Shown one piece after another: positions 7,268 to 40,900 of a stretch of DNA of 64,000 bases (within the stretch, counting starts at the first letter, position 1; the number at the start of each line of letters is the position of its first letter). The notes under the pieces are model-generated. The model was given only the letters and a program-made list of their open reading frames with translations, had not been told where the DNA came from and searched no databases. This DNA comes from Bacteroidales bacterium. Its GTDB lineage: Bacteria > Bacteroidota > Bacteroidia > Bacteroidales > F082. Location: positions 30,735 through 94,734 of the forward strand of contig JAEEON010000036.1 in assembly GCA_016284305.1 (NCBI GenBank), given 5' to 3'. Made by a program: the position numbers and the translations under genes.

Positions 7268-7295
7268 AATGTTTGTTAATTCTGTTTGAAAGAAA

Positions 7296-7880: not shown

Positions 7881-7882
7881 AC

Positions 7883-17466: not shown

Positions 17467-18408
17467 ATGGCTAGACAACAGATTACAAATGCAATAAAAA
17501 AAGTATTTGGTATTTCCGATTGGAGTTTGTTTTCAAAAAACCTTCATAAAAAGATTGGAAAAATCATCTATAAAAAGAAATACACCGCCAATGATCTCCT
17601 TCAGGTGATGATAAAGATGGGTATGCAGCCAGGTGATGTTGTGTATATTCATTCTTCAATGAAGGAGTTCTATAACTATCAGGGAACTGCCGAAGAATTG
17701 ATAAATGTCATCCTAGATTATTTGGGACCTGAAGGAACTTTGGTTATGCCTGCATATCCACCGAATTTCTTTAGCATATCTAAGACCTGTTTGACTGAAA
17801 ACTATCATGGCCTACAAGATGAAGTAAAATTTGATGTGAAAACGACTCCAACAGGAGCAGGCTATCTGGCGGAAGTGTTCCGTAAAATGCCAGGGGTTAA
17901 AAGAAGTATCAATCTTCAGCACTCTGCATGTGCCATTGGTAAATATGCCGACTATCTTTTGTCAGAGCATCAATTTAGTAAGACTTGTTGGGATGAGAAG
18001 TCTCCATACTATAAGTTGACATTATTGGATGCTAAAGTATTCTCTTTTGGTTTGCCCTATTTTGTTTCTACAGTGATTCATTGCACTGACAGCCTTTTAT
18101 ATGGAAAATATGAATTTTTTGATTACTTTTTTAGAAGAAGTATTACCTATAACTATAGGGATGAAAATGGCAATATTGGTACGCATACGATGAGAACGCA
18201 AGACTCGATGAAAAGAAGAAATAAGAAAAAAATGGTAAAAAGGTATTTTGCAAAAGAGCAATTTTTGAAAACCAGTATTTCAAATCTAAGGATAGAATTG
18301 GTGTATGCAAAATATACCCACGAACGTTTTATGGAACTTGCGCGACAAGGGATTGTCATGTATTCTCAACCAGATCCTAAGAAGTGCAGTTGGGTGCCTA
18401 TGGATTAA
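17467..18408 (+). CDS. AAC(3)-fold (Antibiotic_NAT family) N-acetyltransferase, probably acting on an amino sugar
   Basis: GDVVYIHSSMKEF ... GTLVMPAY ... GAGYLAEVFR pattern, as in aminoglycoside 3-N-acetyltransferase-like proteins. Embedded between glycosyltransferases. Confidence 0.55.
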   Translation: MARQQITNAIKKVFGISDWSLFSKNLHKKIGKIIYKKKYTANDLLQVMIKMGMQPGDVVYIHSSMKEFYNYQGTAEELINVILDYLGPEGTLVMPAYPPNFFSISKTCLTENYHGLQDEVKFDVKTTPTGAGYLAEVFRKMPGVKRSINLQHSACAIGKYADYLLSEHQFSKTCWDEKSPYYKLTLLDAKVFSFGLPYFVSTVIHCTDSLLYGKYEFFDYFFRRSITYNYRDENGNIGTHTMRTQDSMKRRNKKKMVKRYFAKEQFLKTSISNLRIELVYAKYTHERFMELARQGIVMYSQPDPKKCSWVPMD

Positions 18409-24112: not shown

Positions 24113-24700
24113 ATGTATAAGAATTTTATTAAACCTGTGGCAGATTGGATTATTGCCCTATGTGCATTCCCTTTTTTCTGCATTTTGTGGATTGTTGTAG
24201 CTATTGCCATCAAAATCGAAGATGGTGGACCTGTTTTCTATATGGCCGAGAGAATTGGAAAAGATAGCAAAAAGCTCAAGATGTTTAAGTTCCGCTCAAT
24301 GAAAGTCAATGCTGAAAACATTCTGAATGCGGATGGGAGTACATATAACTCGAAAGACGATCCTCGGGTGACCAAAGTGGGTAAGTTTTTACGTGAAACT
24401 AGTCTTGATGAGACTGCTCAACTATTAAATATGCTGAAAGGTGAAATGAGTCTTATTGGACCAAGAGCAAGTGGATGGGATGCCTTGCCAACATATAAAG
24501 ATGATGAAATTGACAAGATGAAAGTGCGCCCGGGCATTACGGGTTATACACAAGCTTATTATAGGAATAGCATCTCAGTTCGGGAAAAACGTCTTTATGA
24601 TGCTTGGTATGCGAACCATATTTCATTCGGACTGGATGTTAAGGTCTTTTTCAAAACAATTGTCACTGTGTTTAAACACGATAATGTTTATACAAATTAA
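24113..24700 (+). CDS. Small monotopic phosphoglycosyl transferase (bacterial sugar transferase, PglC/WcfS-like initiating enzyme), copy 1
   Basis: One N-terminal re-entrant hydrophobic helix. GPVFYMAERIGKDSKKLKMFKFRSM, DPRVTKVGKFLRETSLDETAQLLNMLKGEMSLIGPRA (Asp-Glu dyad region). Confidence 0.85.
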   Translation: MYKNFIKPVADWIIALCAFPFFCILWIVVAIAIKIEDGGPVFYMAERIGKDSKKLKMFKFRSMKVNAENILNADGSTYNSKDDPRVTKVGKFLRETSLDETAQLLNMLKGEMSLIGPRASGWDALPTYKDDEIDKMKVRPGITGYTQAYYRNSISVREKRLYDAWYANHISFGLDVKVFFKTIVTVFKHDNVYTN

Positions 24701-24712
24701 TTTTTGGTGGAT

Positions 24713-26011
24713 ATGAGGGTGCTTTGTTTGCCTGCTTACTTTTTCCCAGAGAGCGCGGCTAGTTCGTATTTGAATGAGAATCGGAACAAAGCTTTTTCCG
24801 ATGCTGGATTTAAAACATTTATATACACTCCAACACCTTGTAGAGGAGTTGATGCTGAAACTCGCAAAAAGTATAAAAAAATCAAAAAAGAAGAGCTCTA
24901 TGAAGGGAACACTTTGGTTCACCGTTTTTCCATGTTTGCTGAAGGTAAAAACCCGGTTTTTCGAGCGCTTCGCTATTCTTTGTGCACCATCAAATATTTT
25001 AACCGTGCCGTCTTCGCCAAAGATGCCCGTTCCTGCAACGTGATGTTCATCGCCAGCACTCCACCTATTCAAGGAGCTATGGCAGCTATGGTGAAAAAGT
25101 GCCGTCGCGATCATATCCCGTTCGTATATAACCTCCAAGACATCTTCCCAGACTCCCTCGTGGGTACCGGCCTTGCTAAAAAGGATGGATTGCTATGGAA
25201 AATAGGCCGACGTATAGAGAATTTCACCTACCGCAATGCCGATAAAATCATCGTCATCTCTCAGGACTTCAAGCGTAACATCATGGCCAAGGGAGTTCCA
25301 GAAGAAAAAATTGAGGTGATCTACAACTGGGTCGATCAAAATGCCGTGGTTGACGTCCCTCGGGAAAAGAACAAACTGTTCGACATGTACGACCTCGACA
25401 GATCTAAGTTCTATATCACTTACAACGGCAATATAGGACTTACCCAAAACATGGAGATGCTTTGTGAGGTGGCACGTGAACTGGAACAAGAAGGCTATCA
25501 CGACATCCACTTTGTGCTTACCGGAAATGGTGCCTACTGGGATACCTTGGTGGCTAAACTGAAAGAACAAATACAGGAAGTGAAAACCAAAGCCCCCGAT
25601 GGTACCGAGGCCATCACCTTCGACAATATCACCCTGCTGCCTTTCCAACCTTACGAGGATATCAGCCATGTGTTTAGTCTAGGTGATGCCAGCCTAGTCA
25701 TCAGCAAGCCGGGAGTGGGGGAGAATAGCGTTCCCTCCAAGACTTGGAGCATCATGAGCGCATCGCGCCCAGTGTTGGCCAATTTCGATGAAAACGAATT
25801 GAAAACCATTATCGCTGAACATCATTGCGGCATCTTCACTAAAGCTGGCGACAAAGAAGCGTTTAAACAAGCCGTCCTGACCTTGTATAGGGATAGAAAC
25901 CTATGCAAAGAGTTCGGCCGTAATGGACGTCAGTTTGTCATGGATAATCTCACTCGAGAGGTGGGAACGCAGAAGTACGTCGAAGTGATCAAGAGCATTG
26001 AAAAGAAATAA
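24713..26011 (+). CDS. Glycosyltransferase GT4, WbuB/WcaI-like
   Basis: [21 protein letters not shown]-terminus typical of the WbuB class. C-terminal [36 protein letters not shown] at 24713 preferred over the TTG at 24704. Confidence 0.75.
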
Positions 26012-26028
26012 ATACATACATTATAAAC

Positions 26029-27132
26029 ATGAAAACCGCATTAATTACTGGAGTGACAGGACAAGATGGGTCATACCTCTCCGAATTCCTTATGGGAAAA
26101 GGCTATGACGTCCATGGCATCATCCGTCGCTCGTCTGTCGATTTCCGCGAACGCATCGCCCACCTGGAAGGGAAACCCCATTTCCATTTGCATTATGCTG
26201 ACCTGGGCGACTCCATGTCGATAGTCAAAGTCGTTGACAAAGTTCGTCCCGATGAAATTTATAACCTAGCAGCACAAAGCCACGTCCAAGTCAGTTTCGA
26301 CTCACCTGAGTTTACCGCCGACGTGGATGCTACCGGTGTGCTTCGTGTGCTTGAAGCCGTGCGTGCTTGCCACCTGGAAAAGACCTGCCGCATTTATCAG
26401 GCTTCCACATCGGAACTCTATGGCAAAGTGGAAGAAGTGCCACAAAACGAGAACACGCCCTTCCATCCCTATAGCCCATACGCCGTGGCAAAACTCTACG
26501 GCTTCTGGATTGTCAAAGAATACCGTGAAGCATACGACATGTTTTGTTGCTCGGGGATCCTCTTCAATCATGAAAGCGAACGCCGTGGAGAGACATTCGT
26601 GACTAGAAAAATCACCTTGGCCGCTGCAAGAATTTCCCAAGGTTTGCAGGATTGCCTTTATCTGGGTAATCTTGATAGCCTCCGTGACTGGGGCTATGCC
26701 AAGGATTATGTGGAGTGCATGTGGCTCATCTTGCAAAACGACAAACCGGAGGACTTTGTCATCGCTACCGGCGTGCAACATAGTGTTCGGGAGTTTACTA
26801 AACTAGCTTTCCATCACGCCGGTATCGAGCTTGAGTTTGAAGGCAAGGGAATCGATGAAAAAGGAATCTGCGTCAAAGGTCCTGATGGCCTGATCGGAAA
26901 GACTTTGGTCGCCGTGAGCAAAGACTTCTATCGCCCTACCGATGTCGTCAACCTGTGGGGAGATCCCACCAAAGCAAAAGCTAAACTTGGATGGAATCCC
27001 GCCAGGACCTCTTTTGAGGAACTCGTGAAAATCATGGTGGATCACGATATGGCTAAGGTGGCCTCTGAAGGTGCCGCCGCCAAAGTTAGGATGAACTTGG
27101 CTGAATATCTTGAAAAGGGAATTGTCAAATAA
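26029..27132 (+). CDS. gmd: GDP-mannose 4,6-dehydratase
   Basis: [45 protein letters not shown] (YxxxK), [18 protein letters not shown]: near-canonical Gmd signatures. Confidence 0.95.
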
Positions 27133-27160: not shown

Positions 27161-28102
27161 ATGAAAATAGATTCTAAGATATATGTGGCTGGCCATCGTG
27201 GTATGGTGGGGTCTGCCATCGTCAGAGAGTTGCAACGGCAAGGCTATAACAATATAATAACTCGCACGCATAAGGAAATGGACCTGTGCCGACAGGACCA
27301 AGTGGAGGCTTTCTTTGAACAAGAGAAACCTGAATATGTATTCCTGGCTGCTGCCAAAGTTGGTGGAATCGTTGCGAATCAGTCAGCCTTGGCCGATTTC
27401 ATGTACGATAACATGATTTTGGAGATGAACGTCATCCACTCAGCCTGGAAAAACGGCTGCAAGAAGCTGGAATTCCTTGGCTCATCGTGTATCTATCCGC
27501 GTATGGCACCGCAACCCATGACGGAATCATGCCTGCTCACGGGTGAACTGGAGAAAACCAATGAGGCATATGCCCTGGCTAAGATCAGCGGTCTGAAATA
27601 CTGCGAATTTCTCAATCGTCAATATGGTACGGATTTCATTTCGGTGATGCCTACCAATCTCTATGGCCCGAATGACAATTATCATCCTGAACACAGTCAC
27701 GTGCTCCCAGCATTGATTCGCCGTTTCCATGAAGCCAAAGTAAACGGACTCAAAGAAGTGGTTTGCTGGGGCGATGGCTCCCCATTACGCGAATTCCTCT
27801 ATGTTGATGACCTTGCCAACCTTTGCGTGTTTCTGATGAACCATTATTCAGGAAATGAGACTGTTAATGCCGGAACTGGTAAAGAGTTGACGATCAAGGC
27901 TCTAACCGAGCTTGTCGCTAAAGTTATTGGATACACTGGAGAGATCAAGTGGGATACTACGCGACCGAATGGCACACCACGGAAACTTCTCAATGTGAGC
28001 AAAGCAACCGCATTGGGCTGGACCTATAAGACTGAGCTTGAAGAGGGCATCCGTTTGGCTTATGACGACTTTTTGAATAACCCCATGAGGGCAGAACGAT
28101 AA
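27161..28102 (+). CDS. fcl: GDP-L-fucose synthase (GDP-4-keto-6-deoxymannose 3,5-epimerase/4-reductase)
   Basis: KIYVAGHRGMVGSAI, YALAKISGLKYC (YxxxK), NLYGPNDNY. Directly follows gmd. Confidence 0.95.
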   Translation: MKIDSKIYVAGHRGMVGSAIVRELQRQGYNNIITRTHKEMDLCRQDQVEAFFEQEKPEYVFLAAAKVGGIVANQSALADFMYDNMILEMNVIHSAWKNGCKKLEFLGSSCIYPRMAPQPMTESCLLTGELEKTNEAYALAKISGLKYCEFLNRQYGTDFISVMPTNLYGPNDNYHPEHSHVLPALIRRFHEAKVNGLKEVVCWGDGSPLREFLYVDDLANLCVFLMNHYSGNETVNAGTGKELTIKALTELVAKVIGYTGEIKWDTTRPNGTPRKLLNVSKATALGWTYKTELEEGIRLAYDDFLNNPMRAER

Positions 28103-28113: not shown

Positions 28114-29319
28114 ATGAAAACACGTAACATACCCTTCTCTCCACCGGACATCACTGAAGCTGAGATTCAGGAAGTGGCAGAGGCTCTGCGTTCTGGATGG
28201 ATCACCACAGGACCTAGGACGAAGGAATTTGAACGGCTTATTGCCAATAAATGCACAACCTCGAAGGCAGTATGTCTCAACAGCGCAACCGCTTGTATGG
28301 AAAGCATCCTTCGGGCATTGAACATCGGCCCGGGTGATGAGGTTATCACCTCGGCTTACACTTATACGGCTTCTGCCAGTGTGGTTTGCCATGTGGGGGC
28401 TACATTGCGATTGGTGGATACGCAACCGAACTCTTTCGAGATGGATTATGGGAAATTGGCGGATTCCATTAATGAAAACACCAAAGTCATCATCCCTGTT
28501 GATCTTGGCGGAGTCGTTTGTGACTATGACAAGATATTCGAGGTGGTGGAGAGTAAAAAGCATTTGTTTAAGCCCAACAATGATCTCCAAGCGGCCTTTG
28601 GTCGTGTCGTGGTATTGGCCGACGGTGCTCATGCTTTTGGCGCCGACTGGCATGGACGTCCCTGTGGTTCGATAGCTGACTTTACCTCGTTCAGCTTCCA
28701 TGCCGTCAAAAATCTCACCACTGCTGAAGGAGGGGCTTTGACATGGGTGGATAGGGAAGGAATTGATAATGAGGCTTTATACAAGCATTTCCAACTTCTT
28801 TCGCTTCATGGACAGAACAAAGATGCCTTGGCAAAGACGAAACTGGGTTCGTGGGAATATGACATCATCGCCCCCTATTATAAATGTAACATGACTGACG
28901 TGATGGCAGCCATCGGATTGGCTCAGTTTAAACGCTATCCATCTCTCCTGGCTCGACGCCGTCAGATCATCAATCAATATGATGAAGCTCTGAAGGGAAT
29001 GCCTGTTCAAGTGCTTGACCATTACGGAGACGATCATAATTCAACAGGACACCTTTATCTTACCCGTTTGCTTGGCAAAACGGTTGAGGAACGCAATGAA
29101 GTGATCGTGAAAATGGCTGAGCGCGGCATTGCTTGTAATGTGCATTACAAACCCTTGCCGATGATGACTGCCTATAGAGCTTTGGGATTTGATATCAAAG
29201 ACTATCCGAACGCTTTTAAGCAATATGAAAATGAGGTGACCCTGCCATTACATACTCGGCTCTCCGATGAGGATGTGGCATATGTGATTGAAAATTATTG
29301 CGATGTGATCGCAAAGTGA
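28114..29319 (+). CDS. DegT/DnrJ/EryC1/StrS family PLP-dependent sugar aminotransferase
   Basis: IPFSPPDITEAEIQEVAEALRSGWITTGP N-terminus. Schiff-base Lys in the FSFHAVKNLTTAEGG context. Confidence 0.9.
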   Translation: MKTRNIPFSPPDITEAEIQEVAEALRSGWITTGPRTKEFERLIANKCTTSKAVCLNSATACMESILRALNIGPGDEVITSAYTYTASASVVCHVGATLRLVDTQPNSFEMDYGKLADSINENTKVIIPVDLGGVVCDYDKIFEVVESKKHLFKPNNDLQAAFGRVVVLADGAHAFGADWHGRPCGSIADFTSFSFHAVKNLTTAEGGALTWVDREGIDNEALYKHFQLLSLHGQNKDALAKTKLGSWEYDIIAPYYKCNMTDVMAAIGLAQFKRYPSLLARRRQIINQYDEALKGMPVQVLDHYGDDHNSTGHLYLTRLLGKTVEERNEVIVKMAERGIACNVHYKPLPMMTAYRALGFDIKDYPNAFKQYENEVTLPLHTRLSDEDVAYVIENYCDVIAK

Positions 29320-29320
29320 G

Positions 29321-30496
29321 ATGACGAAGAAAGTATTTGTATCGGGGTGTTATGATCTGCTGCATAGCGGTCATGTGGAATTCTTTAGACAAGCTTCTCA
29401 GTTCGGCGATCTATATGTCGGGATTGGGTCAGATGCTACCATTCTTCATTATAAGGGACACAAGACGATATATAATGAGAAAGAACGTCTCTTCATGGTG
29501 AAGAGTATCCGTTATGTTAAGGATGCCTGCATCAACGAAGGTGATGGCTTCATGGATTTCGTTCCCACGCTAGATCTGGTAAGACCTGATGTTTTTGTGG
29601 TGAATGCCGATGGAGACTCTGATGCCAAGCGTAAGGTTTGCGAGGAAAAAGGCATTGAATATGTGGTGTTGGATCGAATACCCCATGAAGGACTCGAGGC
29701 GCGTTCCTCTACCGCATTGAAACAACAGACTTGTCAATTGCCCACCCGCCTTGACTTGGCTGGCACTTGGATCGATCAACCTTATGTGAGTTGTTTTGCA
29801 CCAGGATGGGCCATTACCATATCCCTTGAGCCTACCTTTGAAGTCCGTGAACGTTGCGGACTATCGACTTCTACCAGAAACATGATCAAGAAGATTTGGC
29901 CAATGAAGCTTCCTGACATGGATCCCGAAATCTTGGCTAAGCTGGTCTTCTGTTTTGAAAACGATCCCGAACGGAGCGATGGCATCATCAGTGGCGCCCA
30001 AGACTCCATCGGTATTTGTATGCCTGGATTGGTTCGTCATCACTACGACAACCGTTTTTGGCCGGATAAGATCGAGAGTTGTTATGATGAGAAGATATTG
30101 TCCTGGCTTGAGAACCATCTCTGTATGATTCCCATGGAACCCCGTAAGCCCGGTTGTTCTGTCGTTGAAGGGAAAGACATTACTGAAACCAAAGTAAAGG
30201 CATTGGCCAAGGCTGCAGACGAGTGTTGGACCGCCATCCTGAATCAAGACCTTGCGAAGTTTGCTTCTGCTTACAAAGCATCCTTCGATGCCCAAGTCGC
30301 CATGTTTCCGGCCATGATACAGGGATGTGTTCAACAATACATTGATTGCTATTCTGCTTTTCCTGAAGTGCTTGCTTGGAAAATGCCTGGGGCAGGAGGT
30401 GGAGGCTATTTGGCTTGTGTTGTCATCGATAGTAATGAGTTCTGTAGGAATCATAAAGAAGCTATTCCGTTGAAGATAAGACGGTATGAAAACTGA
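29321..30496 (+). CDS. Fusion protein: HIGH-type cytidylyltransferase-like nucleotidyltransferase + GHMP-kinase-like domain
   Basis: N-terminal VFVSGCYDLLHSGHVEFF (TagD/RfaE-II-like HxGH). C-terminal GHMP motif I-like PTRLDLAGTWIDQPY, degenerate motif II CGLSTST, intact motif III KMPGAGGGGYLACVV. Confidence 0.6.
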   Translation: MTKKVFVSGCYDLLHSGHVEFFRQASQFGDLYVGIGSDATILHYKGHKTIYNEKERLFMVKSIRYVKDACINEGDGFMDFVPTLDLVRPDVFVVNADGDSDAKRKVCEEKGIEYVVLDRIPHEGLEARSSTALKQQTCQLPTRLDLAGTWIDQPYVSCFAPGWAITISLEPTFEVRERCGLSTSTRNMIKKIWPMKLPDMDPEILAKLVFCFENDPERSDGIISGAQDSIGICMPGLVRHHYDNRFWPDKIESCYDEKILSWLENHLCMIPMEPRKPGCSVVEGKDITETKVKALAKAADECWTAILNQDLAKFASAYKASFDAQVAMFPAMIQGCVQQYIDCYSAFPEVLAWKMPGAGGGGYLACVVIDSNEFCRNHKEAIPLKIRRYEN

Positions 30497-31814
30497 AAAG
30501 ACTTTTGGCGTTATGAAGACATTAGAGAAGAAATACATCATTCCTTTTATCTTAGTGACAGCGTGTTTCGCTTTGTGGGGTTTTGCCAACGACATCACCA
30601 ACCCGATGGTCAAGGCTTTTTCAAAGATATTCCGTATGAGCGTAACCGACGGGGCACTGGTTCAGGTGGCTTTTTACGGTGGCTATTTCTGTATGGCACT
30701 CCCAGCAGCACTCTTTGTGAGAAAGCATTCCTATAAATCGGGATTGCTGATGGGATTGGGATTGTATGCTGTTGGCGCTTTCCTGTTCCTTCCTGCAAAA
30801 GCGTCTGGATCTTATTATCCATTTCTAATAGCCTATTTCATCTTGACATGTGGTCTTTCTTTTTTGGAAACCAGTGCCAACCCATATATTTTGTCGATGG
30901 GAGACAGAGAATCGGCCACTCGGAGGTTGAACCTGGCTCAAGCCTTTAATCCAATAGGTTCCTTGGCAGGTATGTTCGTCGCGATGAATTTCATCCAATC
31001 GAAGTTGAATCCACTCAGTACAGCTGAACGAGCTCTCCTGGATTCAGAGCAGTTTGAGGCGGTTAAGAATTCCGACTTGTCGGTGCTGAGCAAGCCTTAC
31101 GTAATTATCGGCATTGTGCTGGTCTTCATCTTTGTACTGATGTTGGTTCTGAAGATGCCCAAGACCGATGTGCCTCCTACGGATGATAATCGGTTTGGGC
31201 CAACGATCAAGCGCCTATGGAATAACAAGCGTTATCGTTACGGTGTCGTCGCCCAATTCTTTTATGTGGGCGTTCAGATCATGTGTTGGACCTTCATCAT
31301 CCAATATGGAACAAGGATTTTCATGCAGGAAGGGATGGCAGAGATGGATGCCGAAGTGTTATCGCAACGATACAACATCATTGCCATGGTCATTTTCTGC
31401 GTGAGTCGGTTTATATGTACCTTCCTTTTGAAGTATATCAAACCAGCAAAGCTGTTGGCGGTACTCGCTACTGTTGGCACTTTGCTCACGGTTGTAGTGA
31501 TCTTTGCTGACGGTAGGCTTGGCCTATATTCTTTAGTGGCGATTTCTGCATGCATGAGTTTGATGTTCCCGACAATATATGGTATTGCATTGGAGGAAGC
31601 TGGTGAGGATGCGAAATTGGGTGCTGCAGGGCTGATCATGGCTATCTTGGGGGGTAGTGTGATGCCTCCTCTCCAAGCTCGTATCATCGACATGGGCACA
31701 TTCTTGGGTAAACCTGCTGTGAATATGAGTTTTGTGGTGCCGATGGTCTGTTTTGTTGTCATCATTATCTATGGCGTATTTGTGGAAAGACAGAACAAAA
31801 AAATGATTGCTTAA
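30486..31814 (+). CDS. fucP: L-fucose:H+ symporter-type MFS permease
   Basis: 12-TM MFS. N-terminal YIIPFILVTACFALWGFANDITNPMVKAF resembles the FucP signature (YIIPF..L...FFLWa.AN.L). 11-nt overlap with the upstream gene; an alternative ATG at 30513 is possible. Confidence 0.8.
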   Translation: MKTEKTFGVMKTLEKKYIIPFILVTACFALWGFANDITNPMVKAFSKIFRMSVTDGALVQVAFYGGYFCMALPAALFVRKHSYKSGLLMGLGLYAVGAFLFLPAKASGSYYPFLIAYFILTCGLSFLETSANPYILSMGDRESATRRLNLAQAFNPIGSLAGMFVAMNFIQSKLNPLSTAERALLDSEQFEAVKNSDLSVLSKPYVIIGIVLVFIFVLMLVLKMPKTDVPPTDDNRFGPTIKRLWNNKRYRYGVVAQFFYVGVQIMCWTFIIQYGTRIFMQEGMAEMDAEVLSQRYNIIAMVIFCVSRFICTFLLKYIKPAKLLAVLATVGTLLTVVVIFADGRLGLYSLVAISACMSLMFPTIYGIALEEAGEDAKLGAAGLIMAILGGSVMPPLQARIIDMGTFLGKPAVNMSFVVPMVCFVVIIIYGVFVERQNKKMIA

Positions 31815-32137
31815 TGAAAAGATATTGTCAGGCATTGAACCTTGTGGATGACGAAGCGATGATTGCAAAGTATTGCGAAGCGCACGCTCATGTATGGCCA
31901 GAAATAATAGAGGGTCAAAGGCAGGTTGGAATTATAGATATGCAAATCTATCGTTTGGGCACCTCGCTTTTCATGATCTGTGATACCGTGGATGATTTCG
32001 ATTGGAATCGTGACATGGCTCGATTGTCAACCATGCCTCGTCAAGCTGAGTGGGAAGCTTATGTATCTCAGTTCCAAGGTTGTAGTCCAGAGGCTCGCAG
32101 CGATGAGAAATGGCAAATGATGGAACGGATTTTTTAA
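31814..32137 (+). CDS. RhaM-family (L-rhamnose/6-deoxy-L-hexose) mutarotase
   Basis: 107 aa. MKRYCQALNLVDDEAMIAKYCEAHAHVWPEI ... YRLGTSLFM ... W pattern matches the RhaM/DUF718 fold. TAATG overlap with fucP. Confidence 0.7.
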   Translation: MKRYCQALNLVDDEAMIAKYCEAHAHVWPEIIEGQRQVGIIDMQIYRLGTSLFMICDTVDDFDWNRDMARLSTMPRQAEWEAYVSQFQGCSPEARSDEKWQMMERIF

Positions 32138-32148
32138 AAAGGCATTTT

Positions 32149-33333
32149 ATGGAACAATCCCGCATCTACCTCTGCTTAGCCCACATGAGTGAATCCAATT
32201 TGGAGCAACACTATATCAAAGAAGCCTTTGATACGAACTGGATAGCACCGCTAGGTCCTAATGTAAATGGTTTCGAGGCCGATTTGGAGGCTTTTTTTGA
32301 TGATCGAAGAAAGGTCGTAGCCCTTTCGTCATGTACGGCTGCCATCCATCTTGCCTTGTTGGAACTTGGTGTTGGACAAGGAGATGAGGTGTTGTGCCAA
32401 TCGTTTTCATTTTGTGCATGTACAAATCCAGTCACCTATTGTGGTGCCAAACCTGTTTTTATTGACAGTGAGCCGGACACTTGGAACATGGATCCGAAAT
32501 TGCTTGAAATAGCCATCCAGGACCGAGTGGAAAAGACAGGCAGAAAACCAAAGGCTATTATTGTTGTAGATCTCTATGGGATGCCTGCCAACTGGGAGGC
32601 TATCGAAGCTGTCGGTCGCAGATACGATGTCCCAATTATCGAAGATGCCGCTAATGCGTTGGGTTCTTTTTATCAAGGCCAACCTTGTGGGCTGTTTGGT
32701 GAGTTGGGCACCCTCTCTTTCAATGGAAATAAGATGATAACCACAAGCGGGGGAGGAGCACTGTTGTGTGCAGATCCGCAAACAAAAAAGCACGTTGTCT
32801 TCATGTCAACGCAAGCCCGTGAGCCGTTTCCCTATTACCAACATGAAACGATTGGGTTCAACTACCGCATGAGCAATATCTGCGCCGGCATCGGTCGCGG
32901 ACAAATGACTATCTTGGAGAATCATCTTGCCCATCATAAACGCTTGCACCAACTATATCATGAATTGTTGCAAGGCGTGGATGGCATTGCTTTGCATGAA
33001 AACCCAGACAATCGCTATGATAGTTGTTTCTGGTTGAACAATATTACGATTGATCCGGAGTTGCATTTTATCGGGCAAATAGATCCCCACACCTCCTGCG
33101 AACCCAACCCTAACGTGGAAGCCTTGCGTGTCTATCTTGACCAACAAGGCGTCGAAGCCCGCCCACTGTGGAAGCCCATGCACAAACAACCTGTATATAA
33201 AGATGCCCCAGCATACGTCAATGGCATCTCGGAACAGCTCTTCAAAGTGGGCTTGTGCCTGCCAAGTGGCCCTTGCGTCAGTGACGAAAATGTTAAATTT
33301 ATCATAAAATGCATAAAAGATGCTCTAGTATAA
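32149..33333 (+). CDS. DegT/EpsN-like PLP-dependent aminotransferase
   Basis: Schiff-base Lys in LSFNGNKMITTSGGGALL. FNYRMSNICAGIG. ATG at 32149 (MEQSRIYLCLAHM) preferred over 32110. Confidence 0.85.
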   Translation: MEQSRIYLCLAHMSESNLEQHYIKEAFDTNWIAPLGPNVNGFEADLEAFFDDRRKVVALSSCTAAIHLALLELGVGQGDEVLCQSFSFCACTNPVTYCGAKPVFIDSEPDTWNMDPKLLEIAIQDRVEKTGRKPKAIIVVDLYGMPANWEAIEAVGRRYDVPIIEDAANALGSFYQGQPCGLFGELGTLSFNGNKMITTSGGGALLCADPQTKKHVVFMSTQAREPFPYYQHETIGFNYRMSNICAGIGRGQMTILENHLAHHKRLHQLYHELLQGVDGIALHENPDNRYDSCFWLNNITIDPELHFIGQIDPHTSCEPNPNVEALRVYLDQQGVEARPLWKPMHKQPVYKDAPAYVNGISEQLFKVGLCLPSGPCVSDENVKFIIKCIKDALV

Positions 33334-33465: not shown

Positions 33466-33473
33466 TACCTTTG
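33466..33473 (+). promoter_or_regulatory. -7 promoter box TACCTTTG for the DUF3298-like lipoprotein gene
   Basis: Exact TAnnTTTG, 26 nt before the ATG at 33500. Confidence 0.45.
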
Positions 33474-33499
33474 TGCCATCAACAATAAACCTTCTAACC

Positions 33500-34291
33500 A
33501 TGAAAAAAGCCTTCTTATTCCTTTGTGCAGCATGTCTCCTCATGGGATGTGAACGTTCGCCTAAAGGTCCTGAAAATGCATTGAAAGTCAATACTATAAC
33601 CGTCGAGGATAGTGTTCAATTTCCACCTGAGGCCATTGAAGAATGGATGTACGATGACATGGCCTATTATCTTACCGTGGTTGATGCTCCAGTTACCGAA
33701 AATGAAGAGCTTCGGGATAACATCATCAACTGGATCAGCGAGTTCCTTAGTCCAAACTATGATGGCGACTCTCAAGATGTTAAGGCCATGGTTGAGTTCG
33801 ATCGTGATGAGTGCCTCGACATCAATACCGGCAGCCCTCAGTCGCGTCAACAAAACTTCATCAATATGATCGAAGATAGCGATCGCTATGTCACTTATAT
33901 TTGTGACAGCTACATCTATACCGGTGGCGCCCACGGAAGCTCCCTTAAAGAGGGAGCAACTTTTTTGAAGACCGACGGCACCCGCTTTACCTATGAGATG
34001 TTCAAGGATCCCGATGCTTTGGCAAATATCATCAAGGATGGGGTGGAGACTCAATATTACGCGTCGGTGTTGGAAGGTACTGACGTCCCATTTGAAGAAG
34101 CGCTCATAGAAGAAGCCCTTGATGATTTTCCTATGCCCATGACGGAGCCTTGGGTGGAAAATGACTCTATCTTCTTTATCTATATGATTTACGAGATCTC
34201 GGCCTACTCGCTTGGAATGCCACAATGTGGATTCCCATACCAAACGCTTAAAGAGCATCTGACCGACAAAGGCCTGTCTTTCTTTGAATAA
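33500..34291 (+). CDS. Lipoprotein, DUF3298/DUF4163-like
   Basis: Lipobox LLMGC. YIYTGGAHGS motif characteristic of DUF3298. ATG at 33500 (MKKAFLFLCAAC) preferred. Confidence 0.55.
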   Translation: MKKAFLFLCAACLLMGCERSPKGPENALKVNTITVEDSVQFPPEAIEEWMYDDMAYYLTVVDAPVTENEELRDNIINWISEFLSPNYDGDSQDVKAMVEFDRDECLDINTGSPQSRQQNFINMIEDSDRYVTYICDSYIYTGGAHGSSLKEGATFLKTDGTRFTYEMFKDPDALANIIKDGVETQYYASVLEGTDVPFEEALIEEALDDFPMPMTEPWVENDSIFFIYMIYEISAYSLGMPQCGFPYQTLKEHLTDKGLSFFE

Positions 34292-34306
34292 CCGTTGATT
34301 GCGGCG

Positions 34307-34981
34307 ATGAGTGGATTCGGAAAAGCCATGAAGTTCATGTTTGACCGAGTGATGTCATTCATCGGTTTGACCATTTTATGTTGGGTTTATCTTATCATCA
34401 TGATACTCATTAAGATACAGATGCCCGACGGACCGGTTTTCTTTACCCAGGAGCGAATTGGCAGGCAAGGTAAAAGGTTCAAGATACATAAATTCCGTAC
34501 CATGTATGTAGATCAGGAAGGTCCTTCGGTTGCCTATCCCATGGAAGGTCGCATCACTCCCCTTGGTGCCAAATTGCGGAGACTCAAGCTTGATGAGCTT
34601 CCAGAGCTATGGGATGTCTTCATTGGCAACATGAGTTTTGTGGGACCTCGCCCTGATGTGCCTGGCTATGCCGACTGCTTGGAAGGGGAGGACCGTGTCA
34701 TCCTTGAGCTTCGTCCGGGAATCACCGGACCTGCCACGTTGAAGTATCGTAACGAAGAAAAACTCATTATCGACTACGTGGAAAAGGCCAAAGCTGAAGG
34801 GGATCCTCGTCAGGAACAAGAAATCGCCGTTTGGTTCAATGACAACGTCATTTATCCTGATAAGGTTCGCATTAACAAGTATTATGCTCAGCACGCTACC
34901 TTTTGGCTGGATATGAAGATGATCTTTTACACCTTGTTGGGAAAAGATTATGATTGTCCTATGACAATTTCATGCTCTTGA
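34307..34981 (+). CDS. Small monotopic phosphoglycosyl transferase (bacterial sugar transferase), copy 2
   Basis: GPVFFTQERIGRQGKRFKIHKFRTM, RITPLGAKLRRLKLDELPELWDVFIGNMSFVGPRPDVPGY. The start could be the TTG at 34295 or the ATG at 34307. Confidence 0.85.
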   Translation: MSGFGKAMKFMFDRVMSFIGLTILCWVYLIIMILIKIQMPDGPVFFTQERIGRQGKRFKIHKFRTMYVDQEGPSVAYPMEGRITPLGAKLRRLKLDELPELWDVFIGNMSFVGPRPDVPGYADCLEGEDRVILELRPGITGPATLKYRNEEKLIIDYVEKAKAEGDPRQEQEIAVWFNDNVIYPDKVRINKYYAQHATFWLDMKMIFYTLLGKDYDCPMTISCS

Positions 34982-37900
34982 CCATCGTCAACCAGTTGGA
35001 TGCTAGTGGATTTCACGGGTTCGTTGTTGTTGCGGACGTATTTGATGACATAGGTGCTGCGCCCATAACGATAACGGATGTTGAAGTGATCCCATTCGGA
35101 GGGGATGTGTGGTTCGATGTTCAAGATGTCACCTTGTTTGTGCAAGCCCAGAATGTTCTCAATACCAGTCTTGTATGCCCACGATGCGGATCCGGTGTAC
35201 CAAGTCCAACCACCACGTCCTGGATGTTGCGGGTTGCTGTAGATGTCGGCGGCCATGCTATAAGGCTCCACCTTATACTTCAGCACATCGGCCAAGGTCT
35301 GGGTGCGATGGATTGGGTTGATAAGCGAGTAGAGGAAGTAAGCCATGTCGGTGCGTCCTTCTTTGAGCTGGGCCATGATATACCACATGGCTCCGTGAGT
35401 GTACTGTCCACCGTTCTCCCTGACACCCTCGGGGTATTGCATGATGTAGCCTGGGTTGTCGGCGGAGTTCTTGAAGGCAGGAGTGAGCAGTTGGATGATC
35501 TCGTGCTCGCGGTTGACGAGGCGTCCGTCGGTCTCGCGGAAGATGGTTTTCTTCTGCTCAGGTGTGGCCACGTTAGTGAGGATACTCCATGCCTGTGAGA
35601 TCAAGTCGATCTGGCATTCCGTGTTGTTGTGTGAGCCCATGGGGTCGCCGTTGTCGAAGAACGCGCGGAGGAACCAGAAACCATCCCATGCATTGTCTTG
35701 CAGAGCCTTGACTAACTTGGCGCGGAACTGTGAGAGTTCCTCGCAATAGCTGAGGTCGGCGTAAGGCATCTCTTGGGTCAGCTCTTCCATCTTGGGTAGC
35801 AAGTCACAGAGGAAGAAAGCTACCCAAACGCTCTCGCCCTTGCCTTTGGCGCCTACATTGCTCATGCCGTCGTTCCAGTCGCCGCAACCCATCAGAGGAA
35901 GTCCGTGGGCACCGATACGGCCCATGGAGCGGTTGATGGCTCGACGCAGATGCTCATAGAGTGATGCATAGGTGAACGAAGGATCCATGCTTCCATCAGC
36001 AGTCTTCTCAGGCACGGTATAGGTGATGCAACGTTCAGTCTCTCCAACACCCAGCTGTGGAGCTTGGCAGAACGGGACGCTTTCCGTGAGGATGTTGGCA
36101 TCGCCAGTGACACTGATATACTGGTAAGTGACATAGACGAGCCATAGGTAGTCGTCGCTGAAGGTGGTTCGTGCGCCCATCTTCATGTTCTCATGCCACC
36201 AGTGAAGCACGTCGCCCTCGGCAAATTGATGAGCCGCGTGGTCGAGGATCTGTCGTCTCGCCAGGGCTGGGTCGCTGTAAAGGCAACTCATCACGTCTTG
36301 CAGCTGGTCGCGGAATCCCGTGGCGCCGCCGACTTGATAGAAGCCGGCACGAGCGAAGAGGCGAGAGGCATACACCTGATATAGATACCAGCGGTTCAGC
36401 ATGTAGTTGAATGCACGATCGGGGGTGTCCACCTGGATGACGGAGAGTTTCTCGTCCCAGACACGGATCACCTTGTCGTATTCCTCATCGATGCTGGCGA
36501 AACTCAGCTTGACAGGCTTGTCTTCTGGCTTCTCGAGGACGGCGATGACGAAGGCCACCGGAATCTCTTTCTTGGCAGGGATGGTGACCGTCATGCCGAG
36601 ACGTTTTCTGTTGGGGTACTTCAGTGAATAGTCGATGTCGTGCATCGGGACTTCATCGCTGATGGTGGTCAGCTGCACCCGAGTGTTGCGGTACTGGTCG
36701 TGATAGACATTGCGAACGATGATGCTGTTGCTTTCCTCATCCCATTCGGAATAGATGTAACGCGCGGTCTTCTCCTCGGTGGTGCCAAGGACGAGTTTGT
36801 AAACCATGTCGAGTTGCACATCCAGTGCCTCGTCGGTCTTGTTCTCGATCTTGATCTGATAGTATTTCTCAAGGCGCTCTTTGGCGACAAACATGCGTAC
36901 CTTGACGTTGATGTCGTCGTATTGGGCATCGAAGGCGGAGAAGCCTTGTCCGTGACGTGCAGTGGCAGGAACAAATTGTTTCTTGTTGATGAGCAGCATC
37001 TCAGAGGCGTTGTCACGAACGATATCGTTGCTCCATCCCGTGAGTTTGAACTGCTGTGCGTTGAAGGCAAAGGTGAAGCCTGCCATGGTGGAGCTGACGA
37101 TGAAGCCGAACCTTGGGTTGGCAATGACGTTGATCCAAGGCATCGGAGTGTTGGTGTTGGTGACAACATAGTCGCGACCTTCGTTGTCGAATCCGCCATA
37201 TTGGTTGTAGAAGTCGAGGCTGCTCCATACGCGGAACTGCTTGCTGGTCTGCATGACGGGATATTCCACCTTGTCTTGATAGTGTTGGTTGGCGGCTTCC
37301 AGGTGTTGCAGCTGCTGTTCGATGCGTTCGTGGTTGTTGAGGTTGATGCGAGAAACGGTACGCAGTAGGGTGCGTTCTTGCTCGTTAATATCACTGCCGT
37401 TAATCACAAACACCTGTCCTGCTTGCTCGTGAGGAGCCCACAAGTGCTCGGTGTTGGCCATATTACGGATGAAGTGGGTGAGTCCGTCGTGATCGTCACC
37501 GGGGACGTCGTTGATGAAGACCAAATCGAGGACCATGCCGTGAACCTTGTAGTATTCAAAGGCGCGGAGCATCTCTTTGGCGAAACCTGACTTGTTGATG
37601 TCGTCAATCTCCATGAGTACGATGGCATGGTCACCACTGATGCCGAAGCGCCATAATCCGTTTTGCGAAAGCGTGTTCTTGGCAATCAACGCCTGACGTT
37701 CGTTGCCGATGGTGGCCGTCTGGAGGATGTATTTGCTGATGCCGTTGTAGAGACGCATCTGCGAGCCCTTGAGGAGCGACATTCCCGTACGCATGTTATT
37801 ATAAACGGAGGCTTTCTTGAAGGCGTCTTCGATATCGACGGTGCTCCGGTATTGCTCTACCAGTTGGGTGAGCTGTTCGCGCGACTTGGCGAAGCCGGTG

Positions 37901-40900
37901 ATCATGAAAGCTGAGACGGCTTTGCCGGCAGGCACATGGATGCGTCGCCGCATACTCATGATGGGGTCGAGGGTGGTGCCCACCGTGTTGCTCAGAGTGC
38001 GGTGATTGTCGATGACATGGGCGTGACGGATGCTGCCTCCACGACCCAGGAACTTGATTCGAGAGGTCTCGTACTCGACCAAGGTGGAGTTCTCAATGTT
38101 GAAATGCTGCTGCGGCTTGCCTTCCTCATTGAGTTCCATGTTCATCATCCTGAGCTCCTCATTATCGACAAAGAGCTTGTGGACCACGTAGTGCTTCACG
38201 TTTTGGTCTGGGGTTGGCTTGCTGAAGATTAAGGCCTCGTGCTCGCTGTCGTATTCACTGTGGATCTTCATGCTGTTGAAGACGCGGTGTCCGGCATCCT
38301 CGTCCTTGGTGGTGATGACCACCTCACCGTAAGTGGTGAGCTCGAGATCGACATCGTTGTTGCTGTAGTTGGTAAAGGTGAACTTCCTGATCTCGGCGAA
38401 GTAGTCTTTGATGACCGTAATCTCGGTCTTGGTTTCAATGTCGTCATCGACACGCATGTAACTCACCTTGTCGGAGGCGAAACTCACACGATATTGCGTG
38501 GGCATCACATCGAGAGGAGAGTAGGTGTTGCACCACAGCTTGTCGTTTTGCAGGTTGCGGATATAGAGATAGGTGCCGTAATGGTCTGCAGTGATCTTAC
38601 GATAACGGTTGATGAGGATGTTGCGGTAACGCGAGAAGCCTGAACCACGGTCGTTGAGCAGAACGGTATATTGTCCGTTGCTGACCACGCCGATCTCTGG
38701 CACGTTGGCGATGCCGTCGTAATCGCGGGCATCGCTTTCTGTTTGAACCTTAGAGTATTGATAACGTTTGTATTGCGTGACTTTCAGGTCGATATAGGGC
38801 TGAACTTGAGCTTTTTCTTTCAGTAAGGTCTCCATGGAACGGAACACGGGTTCTTGCATGAAGTAGTGTTGCAGGCAATGGTTACCTAGATAGTTTGCTA
38901 AAGAAGCCAGAATCATGCCTTGGTGGTGCGCATAGTGGGCGAGTACCGGCACGTGGTCATCCTCGTCATAACTTTCGTAGAATCCCATGTCGTCGTACAT
39001 GTCGAGTGACTTGAAACGTTGCACGTTGTCGTAAACGGCCTTGTCATTGATGCCGATGGTGAGCAGCGAGCTGTACGGCGAGAGCACGATGCGGTCGGGA
39101 GTGGTGTTTTGGAACTTGAGGTATGGCACGCCGAAAGCATGGTATTTGTAGTTCTTGCCATCGTCAAGTTCGTTGTAGGCGGTTTCGGAAATACCCCAAG
39201 GCATGTTGGAGTTGATGTTCTTCATGAATGCGCGCTGTGCCCTGACGGCGAAACTATAGGTTTCGTCCATTAAGGTGTGCTTGAAGGTGGGCAGGAAGAT
39301 CAACGGCATGAAATACTCAAACAGAGTGCCGTACCAAGAGGCGACACCTTTATAACCTTTGTATTGGACCAAGGTCTTGTCGAGGCAGAACCAGTGCTTG
39401 TAAGGAGCATCGCCTTGGGCGATGGTGAGGAAGCTGGTCAAACGGGCCTCGGAGGCGAAGTTGTTGTAATGGTAGGGCAGAAGCGCGTGGGCTCCATAGT
39501 CATAGCCGATGCTGAACACATCCAGCTCAGGATTATAGAGCTTCGAGAAGTCGGTTTTCTTGATCAAACGTTCCACCATCTCAATCAAATCCCTGACTTC
39601 TGTCTTCTGATCTTCTGTCTTCTTCAAATACCCTTTCAACACATACAGGCATGCCACGAAGTTACCACTGTCGCAGGTGGAGATGAAGAAATTGGGCAAA
39701 GCTTTGAGCGTCTCCACATGATACCAGTTGAAGAGGTGCCCGTTCCATTTAGGCAGTCGATCAACGGTGTTGATGATATGGCTAAGTCTATCGAAGGCCT
39801 CGTCATGGGTGATGAAGCCCAGCTCGGCAGCGGAGATCACGGAAGTGATGGAGTAGCCGATGTTGGTGGGTGAGGTCTTATAGTCCGCCTTTTTGGCTCG
39901 ATTGAGCTGATAGTTGTCGGGGATGAGGTAATGGGTATCTGCGCTGAGCAGGCTATCAAAGTAATGCCAAGTGTCTTGGGCAATCTGCTTCACGTTGTCG
40001 GTCTCAGCGGCACTGAGCGTTTTTTTGTCTTGCGGGAACTTCTTACCCAGCCAATACATCAGGAATGGAGCTCCACACCAGGTGAGGCAGCAGAAGGCGA
40101 GGGCCACAAGGTCGGCAATGTTTCCGCCAAAGACCAGGAAGAGTGCGACGATGATGGCCGATGCCACATAGTTGAACCAGAACTTGCCGATATAGTCGCC
40201 CAAGGTGCCTTTAGTGCTCTTGGCGGCCTCGTCGCTGGTAATCCAGTTGAGTAAGTTCTTGTGTGAGAACCACATACGATAGCAGGCGCGAATTAAGGCG
40301 TCGGTGTACATCCAAGCTTCCTTTGGGAGCAAGGCAAATTGCACTAAGGAGCGGTAGATGATCACTTGGAAGCCTCGCATCAAGGTGGCGTAATAATGAT
40401 AGCGTTTGCCGAATCTAGGCAGCTTGGTGATCTGTCCAAGGATGAAAAAGACGATGGGGCTGGCGACGATGATGAGGGCGGCAGCCACAAACCACACGGG
40501 ATGCAGCAATGCCAGACGGCTGAAGCCAAAGAACAGCACAACGAGCAAAGCCAGACTCAATACACTGCGACGAAGGTTGTCGAAAATCTTCCAACGTCCG
40601 ATGGCGTTGACTTGGTTCTTGACTTTCTCTCCGTGTTCGTTGTGGACACGATTGCGCAGCCATCCGATGATCTGCCAGTCGCCACGGGTCCAACGATGGT
40701 GACGCTTGGCATCGTCGATATAGTTGGATGGGTTGTCGTCGAAGAGCTCCAAGTCGTTGATGAGACCGCAGCGGATATGGCATCCTTCGATGAGGTCGTG
40801 GCTGAGGATGAGATTCTCGGGGAAGGTGCCTTTCAACACTTGCTGGAACACCTTCAGGTCATAAATGCCCTTGCCGCAGAAACTACCCTCGTTGAAAATG

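Follow-up and report, generated by a model that had tools for sequence, protein, structure and literature searches.

The gene at 29321-30496 of a 64,000-nt stretch of DNA from a Bacteroidales bacterium (contig JAEEON010000036.1, assembly GCA_016284305.1; hereafter the window) encodes a fusion protein of 391 amino acids, in which a nucleotidyltransferase (NT) domain of the HxGH class precedes a minimal GHMP kinase domain. Together with genes for a FucP-family permease and a RhaM-fold mutarotase it forms a three-gene cassette beside gmd and fcl. We propose, with a probability of roughly 0.6, that the fusion is a compact bifunctional L-fucose-activating enzyme, i.e., a functional analogue of the fucose salvage enzyme Fkp that is built from different parts. 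A preliminary description of this DNA had postulated a non-Fkp route of import, anomer conversion, phosphorylation and nucleotidyl transfer which feeds the capsule. This route was supported by profile and fold comparisons, by residues shared with Fkp, by synteny and by natural gene fusions, whereas the two aminotransferases that had been counted in with it do not belong to it.

Indications of the substrate came from the C-terminal half of the protein. In a comparison of the family profile with the PDB, Fkp was the best match (1.3e-15), followed by HddA-like proteins (2.7e-11), WcbL (8e-8) and mevalonate kinase (2e-7). The Fkp model of NCBIfam was matched by 27 of 32 diverse fusions and the HddA model by only one of them. 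The motif-I segment of the window protein retrieved only the three Fkp chains among 177,635 PDB sequences; the shortness of this query accounts for the weak E-values (0.22-0.54). In the HMMER alignment Fkp residues 590-620 (PVRIDMAGGWTDTP...) were paired with the family segment PyRiDlaGGWlDqP, and Fkp residues 758-777 (GGWQDQYGG) with sGsQDaiGi. The resulting residue pairs (window protein first) are R143 and R592, W150 and W599, D152 and D601, G225 and G759, Q227 and Q761, and D228 and D762. All six positions are conserved in 27-32 of the 32 family members. In Fkp the general base is D762, and the transition state is stabilised by R592. Fucose is stacked with its C4-C5-C6 against W599, and D601 and Q761 contact O3 and O4 of the sugar, which is bound in the beta configuration (PMC11982464). 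Exchange D762A abolished activity, and W599A and D601A caused a more than 3000-fold loss in kcat/Km for fucose (PMC11982464). Judged from these comparisons, the kinase domain is a family of its own that is closest to fucokinase.

The structural models are in line with this classification. An AlphaFold2 model of the whole fusion, based on 32 diverse homologues, was obtained with a pLDDT of 93.5, and a dip at residues 131-140 marks the linker between the two domains. The kinase domain alone (253 amino acids; pLDDT 95.4, pTM 0.92) adopted a two-lobed GHMP fold. In Foldseek searches two independent sets of matches were obtained, namely WcbL, the fucokinase part of Fkp and mevalonate kinase for the C-terminal half, and TagD, HldC, Fom1 CyTase and 3glv for the N-terminal half; the probability was 1.0 for WcbL, Fkp, TagD, HldC and Fom1 CyTase. 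The TMq of the kinase domain was 0.79 for WcbL, 0.70-0.72 for Fkp and 0.68 for mevalonate kinase. Since the counterparts in WcbL and Fkp comprise 345-361 residues, the domain represents a trimmed GHMP kinase. The GHMP motifs I and III are present and conserved. Thus, the GHMP-kinase-like body with an intact motif III (PGAGGGGY), which had been recognized before, was confirmed, and profile searches with each half of the protein led to PF01467 and the HxGH class for the N-terminal half and to Fkp for the C-terminal half. In contrast, motif II (CGLSTST) had been called degenerate. Its place is taken by a GLSTSTR-type loop instead of Pro-x-x-x-Gly-Leu-x-Ser-Ser-Ala, and this loop is conserved throughout the family (G180 in 31, S184 and T185 in 30 and R186 in all of the 32 members), which argues for a family-specific P-loop variant and not for decay. 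Pfam GHMP_kinases_N was not matched, and the cutoff of 21 bits for GHMP_kinases_C was passed only by the relatives P0153 (29.1 bits), P0176 (30.9 bits) and P0136 (23.6 bits). An exhaustive search of 1.84 billion representatives with the C-terminal half yielded 564 clusters at E <= 1e-3, comprising standalone proteins (~240 amino acids), NT-kinase fusions (~365-415 amino acids) and longer fusions.

The superposition with WcbL, a heptokinase, and an N-terminal domain whose nearest curated family is RfaE domain II would also fit a heptose enzyme, in which an HddA/WcbL-like heptose-7-phosphate kinase and an RfaE-II-like transferase produce ADP- or GDP-heptose for the capsule. We regard this as very improbable. 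By sequence profile Fkp was 4 to 8 orders of magnitude ahead of the heptose kinases (2.7e-11 to 1e-7), and the HddA model was matched by one family member only, as stated above. Moreover, the heptose pathway needs GmhA and GmhB. Neither a GmhB-type HAD motif nor a plausible GmhA motif was found among the 718 open reading frames (ORFs) located within 5 kb of the fusion in the best 80 of the at least 581 loci with relatives. The conserved partners of the fusion are instead a free-sugar transporter and a mutarotase, which a phospho-heptose pathway does not need. The heptose route was rejected on account of the missing GmhA and GmhB neighbours and the weaker sequence profile.

The N-terminal domain was assigned to the HxGH nucleotidyltransferases, in agreement with the TagD/RfaE-II-like head proposed in the preliminary description. 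PF01467 matched amino acids 7-135 with 50 bits (cutoff 21) and TIGR00125 gave 56.4 bits (cutoff 27.7). Foldseek comparison of the domain resulted in a TMt of 0.82-0.87 for 3glv, TagD and Fom1 and of 0.65-0.68 for HldC, and no pyrophosphorylase of the Fkp N-terminal type was among the matches. Residues H15 and H18 are conserved in 30, K45 in 29 and R56 in all of the 32 members. The nearest curated family, rfaE_dom_II, was matched by all 32 members with scores below its cutoff. The fusion itself reached 55.3 bits with TIGR02199 (RfaE domain II; equivalog-domain cutoff 181.5 bits) and 36 bits with TIGR01518 (TagD; equivalog cutoff 165.4 bits). The best PDB sequence matches were the CTP enzymes ECT (3.3e-28, family profile) and TagD.

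An N-terminal domain which matches TagD, CCT and ECT, and a LicD-family gene in the same locus (14264-15004; PF04991, E 3.4e-10), would be compatible with the formation of a CDP-activated alcohol phosphate (CDP-choline, CDP-glycerol, CDP-ribitol or similar) for the LicD-family transferase, a role that had been offered as an alternative before. The C-terminal half, an Fkp-type anomeric sugar kinase and not a choline or glycerol kinase, does not suit this function. Furthermore, the other 88 loci (L001-L089), among them a strain of the same species with a different upstream capsule region, were without a LicD homologue near the fusion. Because LicD accompanies the fusion in none of these loci, this alternative was dismissed; we consider it extremely improbable.

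The two remaining genes of the cassette point to L-fucose as well. The permease scored 605.7 bits with the FucP equivalog model TIGR00885 (cutoff 280.4 bits) over profile positions 1-408 of 410 and is, by this assignment, a FucP-family L-fucose:H+ symporter. The 107-amino-acid mutarotase passed the PF05336 gathering score (23.4 bits) with 96.4 bits. The profile of its RhaM-like orthologues beside the fusion matched the L-fucose mutarotase 7byu with 1e-14 (57.7 bits), RhaU with 7e-8 (35.7 bits) and YiiL with 4.6e-5, and the match to 7byu/7byw was nearly full length. The match of the single sequence to FucM was faint (E 0.09). FucM is an L-fucose mutarotase of the RhaM superfamily characterised by Watanabe et al. 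2020, as cited in PMC11199699. From these scores the mutarotase of the window appears FucM-like, being closest to FucM and more distant from the L-rhamnose mutarotases. GH29 alpha-L-fucosidases are retaining enzymes and release alpha-L-fucose. Since Fkp takes the beta form, this would explain the need for a mutarotase.

A similar free sugar such as L-galactose, D-arabinopyranose, L-rhamnose or another 6-deoxy-L-hexose is an improbable substrate, in which case the fucose-like labels of the partner proteins would merely reflect family membership. Leishmania Fkp-type enzymes are described in PMC5481574 as handling D-arabinose, the RhaM fold also holds rhamnose enzymes, the permeases next to the fusion fall into two groups with 46-50% and 63-77% identity to FucP of the window, and phage homologues occur without fucose context. 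However, the FucP equivalog threshold was passed by a wide margin and the mutarotase profile favours FucM over the rhamnose mutarotases by 22 bits. The tryptophan on fucose C4-C5-C6 and the aspartate and glutamine for O3/O4 are all conserved, and a GH29 alpha-L-fucosidase gene adjoins a natural triple fusion of this family (see below).

For the putative L-fucose salvage cassette we propose the following sequence of reactions. Free L-fucose would be imported by FucP and converted from the alpha to the beta anomer by the FucM-like mutarotase. The C-terminal kinase domain would then phosphorylate O1 of beta-L-fucose with ATP. In this step D228 would serve as general base, R143 and the GLSTSTR loop would hold the phosphates in place, and W150, D152 and Q227 would bind the 6-deoxy-galacto sugar. 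Finally, the N-terminal HxGH domain would couple beta-L-fucose-1-phosphate to a nucleoside monophosphate, yielding an NDP-L-fucose. The product would most likely be GDP-L-fucose, the same donor as that of the gmd-fcl route, for the fucosyltransferases of the capsule.

The distribution of the family was analyzed in protein and genome collections. A protein search yielded at least 8000 clusters, the top 120 of which show 80% identity or more, and a scan of GTDB species-representative genomes with a 5-sequence alignment yielded at least 581 confirmed relatives. The best 80 are nearly all labelled as Bacteroidales/Bacteroidota (two are labelled only 'bacterium') and include Segatella copri, besides Prevotellaceae, Bacteroidaceae, Rikenellaceae and other metagenome-assembled genomes from rumen, horse and human gut. 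Unbiased clustering of the 718 neighbour ORFs gave FucP-like members of the major facilitator superfamily (MFS; 32 loci), RhaM (29) and Gmd/Fcl (28) as the top three clusters. These were followed by CapD/PglF-like proteins (12), AT2-like aminotransferases (12), UDP-glucose dehydrogenase (7) and ManC-like nucleotidyltransferases (6). By tblastn at least one of fucP, rhaM, gmd and fcl was detected within 5 kb of the fusion in 60 of the 80 loci, with a FucP-like MFS gene in 34 and rhaM in 35 of them. In 52 loci the fusion is flanked on either side by 5 kb or more of sequence, and 40 of these have at least one fucose partner within that distance. The gene orders fusion-fucP-rhaM, rhaM-fucP-fusion, fucP-fusion and gmd-fusion-fcl were observed. 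This variability suggests functional linkage or selection rather than one inherited arrangement. In two loci (L006/L007, 2330-11249) the cassette of fusion, MFS and rhaM genes is present in two tandem copies, whose fusions are 75% and 80% identical to that of the window. The copies are separated by SocA_Panacea and bAvd/23S-rRNA-IVP-type genes and are followed by defence-type genes (TIR and OLD-TOPRIM in L006, SIR2-HerA in L007).

In several proteins the predicted activities are joined in a single chain. P0135 (593 amino acids) consists of RhaM, HxGH NT and kinase domains. Its gene is located in a 5.6-Mb genome outside a capsule locus, with genes for a T9SS-tail protein and GH97 upstream. It is directly followed by the gene for a FucP relative of full length (35% identity, E 4.5e-68) and by that for the GH29 alpha-L-fucosidase mentioned above (L090, 8001-12659). 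In a second type, a 43-member cluster of 601-amino-acid proteins, a Gmd paralogue is joined to the tail of the NT domain and the kinase domain. This paralogue is 57% identical to Gmd of the window, and the 601-amino-acid fusion is encoded with a true Gmd (71%) on one side and a ManC-like nucleotidyltransferase on the other (L091 6963-10886, also L092 and L093). The occurrence of 43 members on many contigs shows that the joining of Gmd and kinase is not an artefact of gene calling.

Relatives of the fusion were also observed on phage-like and viral contigs. Standalone kinase homologues of 240 amino acids (38-46% identity) are encoded on phage-like contigs (L094 6001-6726, P0147, P0152). One of these genes directly follows thyX among genes for UvsX, DnaB and a DNA methylase, one has a GT11 gene (alpha-1,2-fucosyltransferase family) two genes upstream, and one is found among GT2, GT1-like, sulfatase-like and Mom genes. 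Full-length NT-kinase fusions with 42-48% identity are present on viral contigs (L095 7001-8137, L097 6001-7155, L098-L100), none of which carries fucP, rhaM, gmd or fcl. L095 contains prohead protease, gp25 baseplate and tail collar genes; on the 188-kb contig L097 the fusion gene is close to a thymidylate-synthase-like gene and PNKP. By analogy to AfhE-type phage enzymes, which are D-arabinose-5-phosphate kinases/UDP-arabinose pyrophosphorylases (PMC13326640), the viral fusions may provide the activated sugar with which DNA or virions are glycosylated. AfhE-type enzymes are likewise bifunctional and sugar-activating, with an N-terminal NT and a C-terminal kinase domain, and they are analogous and not homologous to the fusion. 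The comparison is relevant because distant homologues of the fusion family adjoin thymidylate-synthase-like genes on phage contigs. An IMG/VR 'viral' contig (L101 4840-8142) carries gmd-fusion-fcl with 82%, 63% and 86% identity to the genes of the window and resembles a piece of a bacterial capsule locus, or a region next to a prophage, more than a set of phage genes. Among cultured phages (INPHARED) NT-domain matches were found in cyanophages only, and no fusion was present.

Several points weigh against the proposed L-fucose salvage. The substrate, the product, the order of the reactions and the nucleotide are what we infer from the data described here. Compared with known GHMP sugar kinases, the kinase domain lacks about 100 residues, its P-loop departs from the canonical GSGLGSS-type motif II, and by fold alone the WcbL heptokinase lies slightly above Fkp. 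Twenty of the 80 loci have no fucose partner within 5 kb. The distant phage homologues without fucose genes suggest that the wider family may use other sugars. The weakest step is the product GDP-fucose, since among the HxGH relatives RfaE domain II acts on ATP and the others act on CTP.

We know of no enzyme of the HxGH class which uses GTP; to our knowledge all characterised members of this cytidylyltransferase-like class use CTP or ATP. It is conceivable, although we hold it to be unlikely, that the same cassette acts on the same sugar while the HxGH domain employs ATP or CTP and provides ADP- or CDP-beta-L-fucose to dedicated glycosyltransferases instead of the ordinary ones that depend on GDP-fucose. 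The match of all 32 members to RfaE domain II, which adenylylates a beta-sugar-1-phosphate, and the CTP enzymes ECT and TagD as best PDB sequence matches would agree with this, as would the homologues of the kinase domain that are fused to glycosyltransferase domains (P0141, P0162). The genomic context speaks against it. Neighbouring gmd/fcl or ManC-like genes in many species suggest a shared GDP-fucose pool, the clustering of the 718 neighbour ORFs revealed no glycosyltransferase family that is repeatedly associated with the fusion, and in L090 the P0135 cassette occurs with the fucosidase alone and without a glycosyltransferase alongside. The gmd/fcl and ManC-like neighbours and the lack of a co-travelling glycosyltransferase family argue for the common donor GDP-L-fucose. 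Should ADP- or CDP-beta-L-fucose nevertheless be formed, a rather doubtful case, the HxGH domain would be the first of its fold acting on L-fucose-1-phosphate, the phage relatives would by such chemistry provide sugars with which virions or DNA are glycosylated, and the product would be a new nucleotide sugar, consumed by dedicated glycosyltransferases of Bacteroidales capsules. GDP-fucose as product would make the domain the first guanylyltransferase of the HxGH fold.

The proposed L-fucose-activating enzyme resembles Fkp of B. fragilis (PDB 5yys, 9iip, 9iit; NF009948) in that one chain carries an N-terminal nucleotidyltransferase and a C-terminal GHMP kinase. The kinase domains are homologous, with Fkp as the best sequence-profile match, and have fucose-binding and catalytic residues in common. 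The role predicted for the fusion also coincides with that of Fkp, namely to salvage free fucose for the surface glycans of gut Bacteroidales. In contrast, Fkp comprises ~950 amino acids, and the fusion scored only 22.1 bits with NF009948 (cutoff 721), limited to profile positions 870-938. This faint match at the end of the model (its last 70 positions) was the only one that the part of the fusion beyond the NT domain gave in the comparison with family models. The N-terminal half of Fkp is a GDP-fucose pyrophosphorylase (GFPP) of the GlmU/left-handed-beta-helix type and that of the fusion is an HxGH Rossmann domain; thus, the N-terminal halves are not homologous. The kinase of the fusion has ~100 residues fewer and another P-loop (GLSTSTR), and the fusion is part of a cassette with its own permease and mutarotase. 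No Fkp-like ORF is present in the 64-kb window, and a protein search with a 92-amino-acid Fkp segment yielded C-terminal fragments of 80-160 amino acids only.

HldE/RfaE and HldC share with the fusion a kinase fused to an HxGH nucleotidyltransferase that acts on a beta-sugar-1-phosphate. The kinase of HldE is an N-terminal domain of the ribokinase fold (PfkB), whereas that of the fusion is C-terminal and of the GHMP type. The fusion remains far below the equivalog cutoffs (55 vs 181.5 bits) and lacks GmhA/GmhB partners, and its sugar would be an imported free sugar instead of a phospho-heptose made in the cell. HddA and WcbL (PDB 4usk, 3k85, 4n3o) belong to the same GHMP subfamily as fucokinase and gave the best superposition of the kinase domain (TMq 0.79). 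They differ by weaker profile matches than Fkp, a length of ~345 amino acids and other genomic partners, and motif I retrieved Fkp only. TagD, CCT, ECT and Fom1 CyTase have the fold and the HxGH and RxSST-type motifs of the N-terminal domain, but act on alcohol phosphates or phosphonates with CTP, and none is fused to a GHMP kinase. FucM (7byu/7byw) was matched nearly over its full length by the 107-amino-acid neighbour and its orthologues, better than RhaU and YiiL. While FucM feeds a catabolic, non-phosphorylating dehydrogenase pathway, the mutarotase studied here would serve an anabolic kinase/nucleotidyltransferase, to which it is fused in P0135.

The five genes from the first aminotransferase gene to the second (AT1 and AT2, Table 1), their junctions of 1-11 nt and the three motifs quoted in the preliminary description were all found in the sequence. 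The stop codon TAA of fcl (28100-28102) is separated by 11 nt from the ATG of AT1 at 28114, and the TGA of AT1 (29317-29319) by 1 nt from the ATG of the fusion gene at 29321. The TGA of the latter (30494-30496) and the ATG of fucP at 30486 create an overlap of 11 nt; an alternative ATG at 30513 would leave a gap of 16 nt. The genes fucP and rhaM overlap in TAATG (31812-31816). The mutarotase gene ends with TAA at 32135-32137, so that AT2 would overlap by 28 nt with start 32110 or follow after 11 nt with start 32149, which was chosen by the gene callers in L003. In the fusion protein CYDLLHSGH occupies amino acids 10-18, CGLSTST 179-185 and PGAGGGGY 356-363.

Table 1. Features of the fucose gene region (positions in the window)
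Feature	Position	Strand	Support
gmd, GDP-mannose 4,6-dehydratase, de novo GDP-fucose step 1	26029-27132	+	TIGR01472 equivalog 509 bits (cutoff 415); PF16363 464 bits
fcl, GDP-L-fucose synthase, de novo step 2	27161-28102	+	NF047922 477 bits (cutoff 500), full-length alignment; PF01370 209 bits
AT1, DegT-family sugar aminotransferase	28114-29319	+	PF01041 292 bits
Fusion, 391 aa	29321-30496	+	six-frame ORF
Fusion N-terminal domain, aa 1-138, HxGH-class nucleotidyltransferase (proposed L-fucose-1-phosphate nucleotidyltransferase)	29321-29734	+	
Fusion C-terminal domain, aa 139-391, minimal GHMP anomeric sugar kinase (proposed L-fucokinase)	29735-30496	+	
fucP, MFS, L-fucose:H+ symporter by family	30486-31814	+	TIGR00885 equivalog
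RhaM-fold mutarotase, FucM-like, 107 aa (proposed L-fucose mutarotase)	31814-32137	+	PF05336 96.4 bits
AT2, DegT-family, PglE/LegC-like aminotransferase	32149-33333 (alternative start 32110)	+	PF01041 290 bits; TIGR04181 332 bits (<420 cutoff)

Within the cluster terminator-like signals were not more frequent than in shuffled sequence (11 found, 11.0 expected), and none was above chance. Promoter sites numbered 21 (23 expected) in a scan whose consensus covers the sigma-70 type only. Bacteroidales promoters differ from this consensus. The same arrangement was present with 99-100% identity in independent assemblies of the same species (L003-L005). Because of this recurrence and the linkage of fusion, fucP and rhaM in many species, the arrangement goes beyond chance. 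The DNA sequencing runs containing the region are gut metagenomes, with bovine, sheep or goat as named hosts. Contigs of bovine/sheep gut metatranscriptomes lie inside the fusion gene (X26, 29987-30231; X27, 29888-30154), and a further contig of X26 (30392-30539) crosses the junction of fusion and fucP. This thin coverage shows transcription and is consistent with co-transcription, neither of them being quantified. As a whole, the window is a long one-directional locus of the capsule/O-antigen type with glycosyltransferases, Wzy, LicD, acyl-chain enzymes and two small Bac_transf initiating transferases. The cassette is located at the downstream end of this capsule locus in a ruminant-gut Bacteroidales bacterium.

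The two aminotransferases, which had been regarded as part of the salvage route, are by sequence closest to UDP-sugar 4-aminotransferases and not to GDP-sugar enzymes. The best PDB match of AT1 was 6ewj with 552 bits, an entry deposited as capsular polysaccharide biosynthesis protein, which we take to be the UDP-4-keto-6-deoxy-HexNAc aminotransferase Spr1654 of S. pneumoniae. AT2 matched best 1o61 and 4ztc (~280 bits), presumably PglE of C. jejuni, and precedes the second Bac_transf gene (34295-34981). AT1 lies between fcl and the fusion gene only in L003-L005. In L018, L037 and L048 it directly adjoins homologues of the Bac_transf (24113-24700) and GT4 (24704-26011) genes of the window. By tblastn, 4 of the best 80 loci have AT1 close to the fusion and 10 have AT2 there. 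UDP-sugar-type matches, rare occurrence near the fusion and ties to Bac_transf modules thus separate both genes from the salvage route. AT1, apparently co-transcribed with the cassette but standing outside the salvage route, probably forms a UDP-4-amino-4,6-dideoxy-HexNAc. The possibility that AT1 is a Gmd-linked enzyme of the GDP-perosamine synthase type was rejected because perosamine synthetase reached only ~150 bits and AT1 travels with the Bac_transf-GT4 pair. The five-gene string is thus a mosaic, in which a GDP-fucose module (gmd-fcl and fusion-fucP-mutarotase) is interleaved with two amino-sugar/initiating-transferase modules. Both small Bac_transf proteins are PglC-like and have their own DegT aminotransferase (6ewj-like and 1o61/4ztc-like, respectively), so that one capsule locus may contain two initiating modules for amino sugars, either as alternatives or acting in sequence.

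Further genes of the locus were noted. A 272-amino-acid predicted lipoprotein with weak PdaC/DUF3298 matches (33473-34291) is encoded between AT2 and the last Bac_transf gene and is kept in L003-L005. The same holds for a gene on the minus strand (34948-42660) that converges on the capsule locus and overlaps with its 3' end the last Bac_transf gene by 34 nt. Its product of 2570 amino acids has GH94, glycoamylase and beta-supersandwich domains and resembles cyclic/linear beta-1,2-glucan phosphorylases/synthases. At the other end of the window (38-8623) a fatty-acyl/polyketide-like set, comprising an AMP-binding enzyme, two KAS III, an acyltransferase (PF00698), two SDRs and three hexapeptide transferases, points to substitution of the polysaccharide with an acylated sugar or a lipid. 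Among the capsule glycosyltransferases lies a member of the aminoglycoside 3-N-acetyltransferase family (17467-18408; PF02522, 123 bits), for which N-acetylation of an amino sugar is a more probable role than resistance.

In the full-text literature searched no description of an NT-GHMP kinase fusion architecture was found. No mention of the fusion is made in a phylogenetic study of FKP, FUK and GFPP from 2025, and Prevotella and Segatella are named neither in the paper nor in its supplement. The public names of the proteins are generic, i.e., 'adenylyltransferase/cytidyltransferase family protein', 'cytidyltransferase-like protein' or 'galactokinase/mevalonate kinase-like predicted kinase', and if the salvage reading is true this annotation now hides the role of the family. 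What appears to be new is a predicted salvage system of the Fkp kind whose nucleotidyltransferase is not homologous to that of Fkp, whose kinase is minimal and whose cassette has its own permease and mutarotase.

Salvage by Fkp is the textbook route to host-like surface fucose in gut Bacteroides and affects persistence in the gut. If our proposal is correct, a very large group of gut and rumen Bacteroidales, including Segatella copri and many Prevotellaceae, salvages fucose by a smaller, non-orthologous enzyme. The fusion would then contain the smallest known GHMP sugar kinase, together with the first sugar-1-phosphate nucleotidyltransferase of the HxGH fold that serves a 6-deoxyhexose. It would be a candidate compact biocatalyst for the synthesis of NDP-fucose, and its presence would also predict which Prevotella-type strains are open to labelling with fucose analogues.

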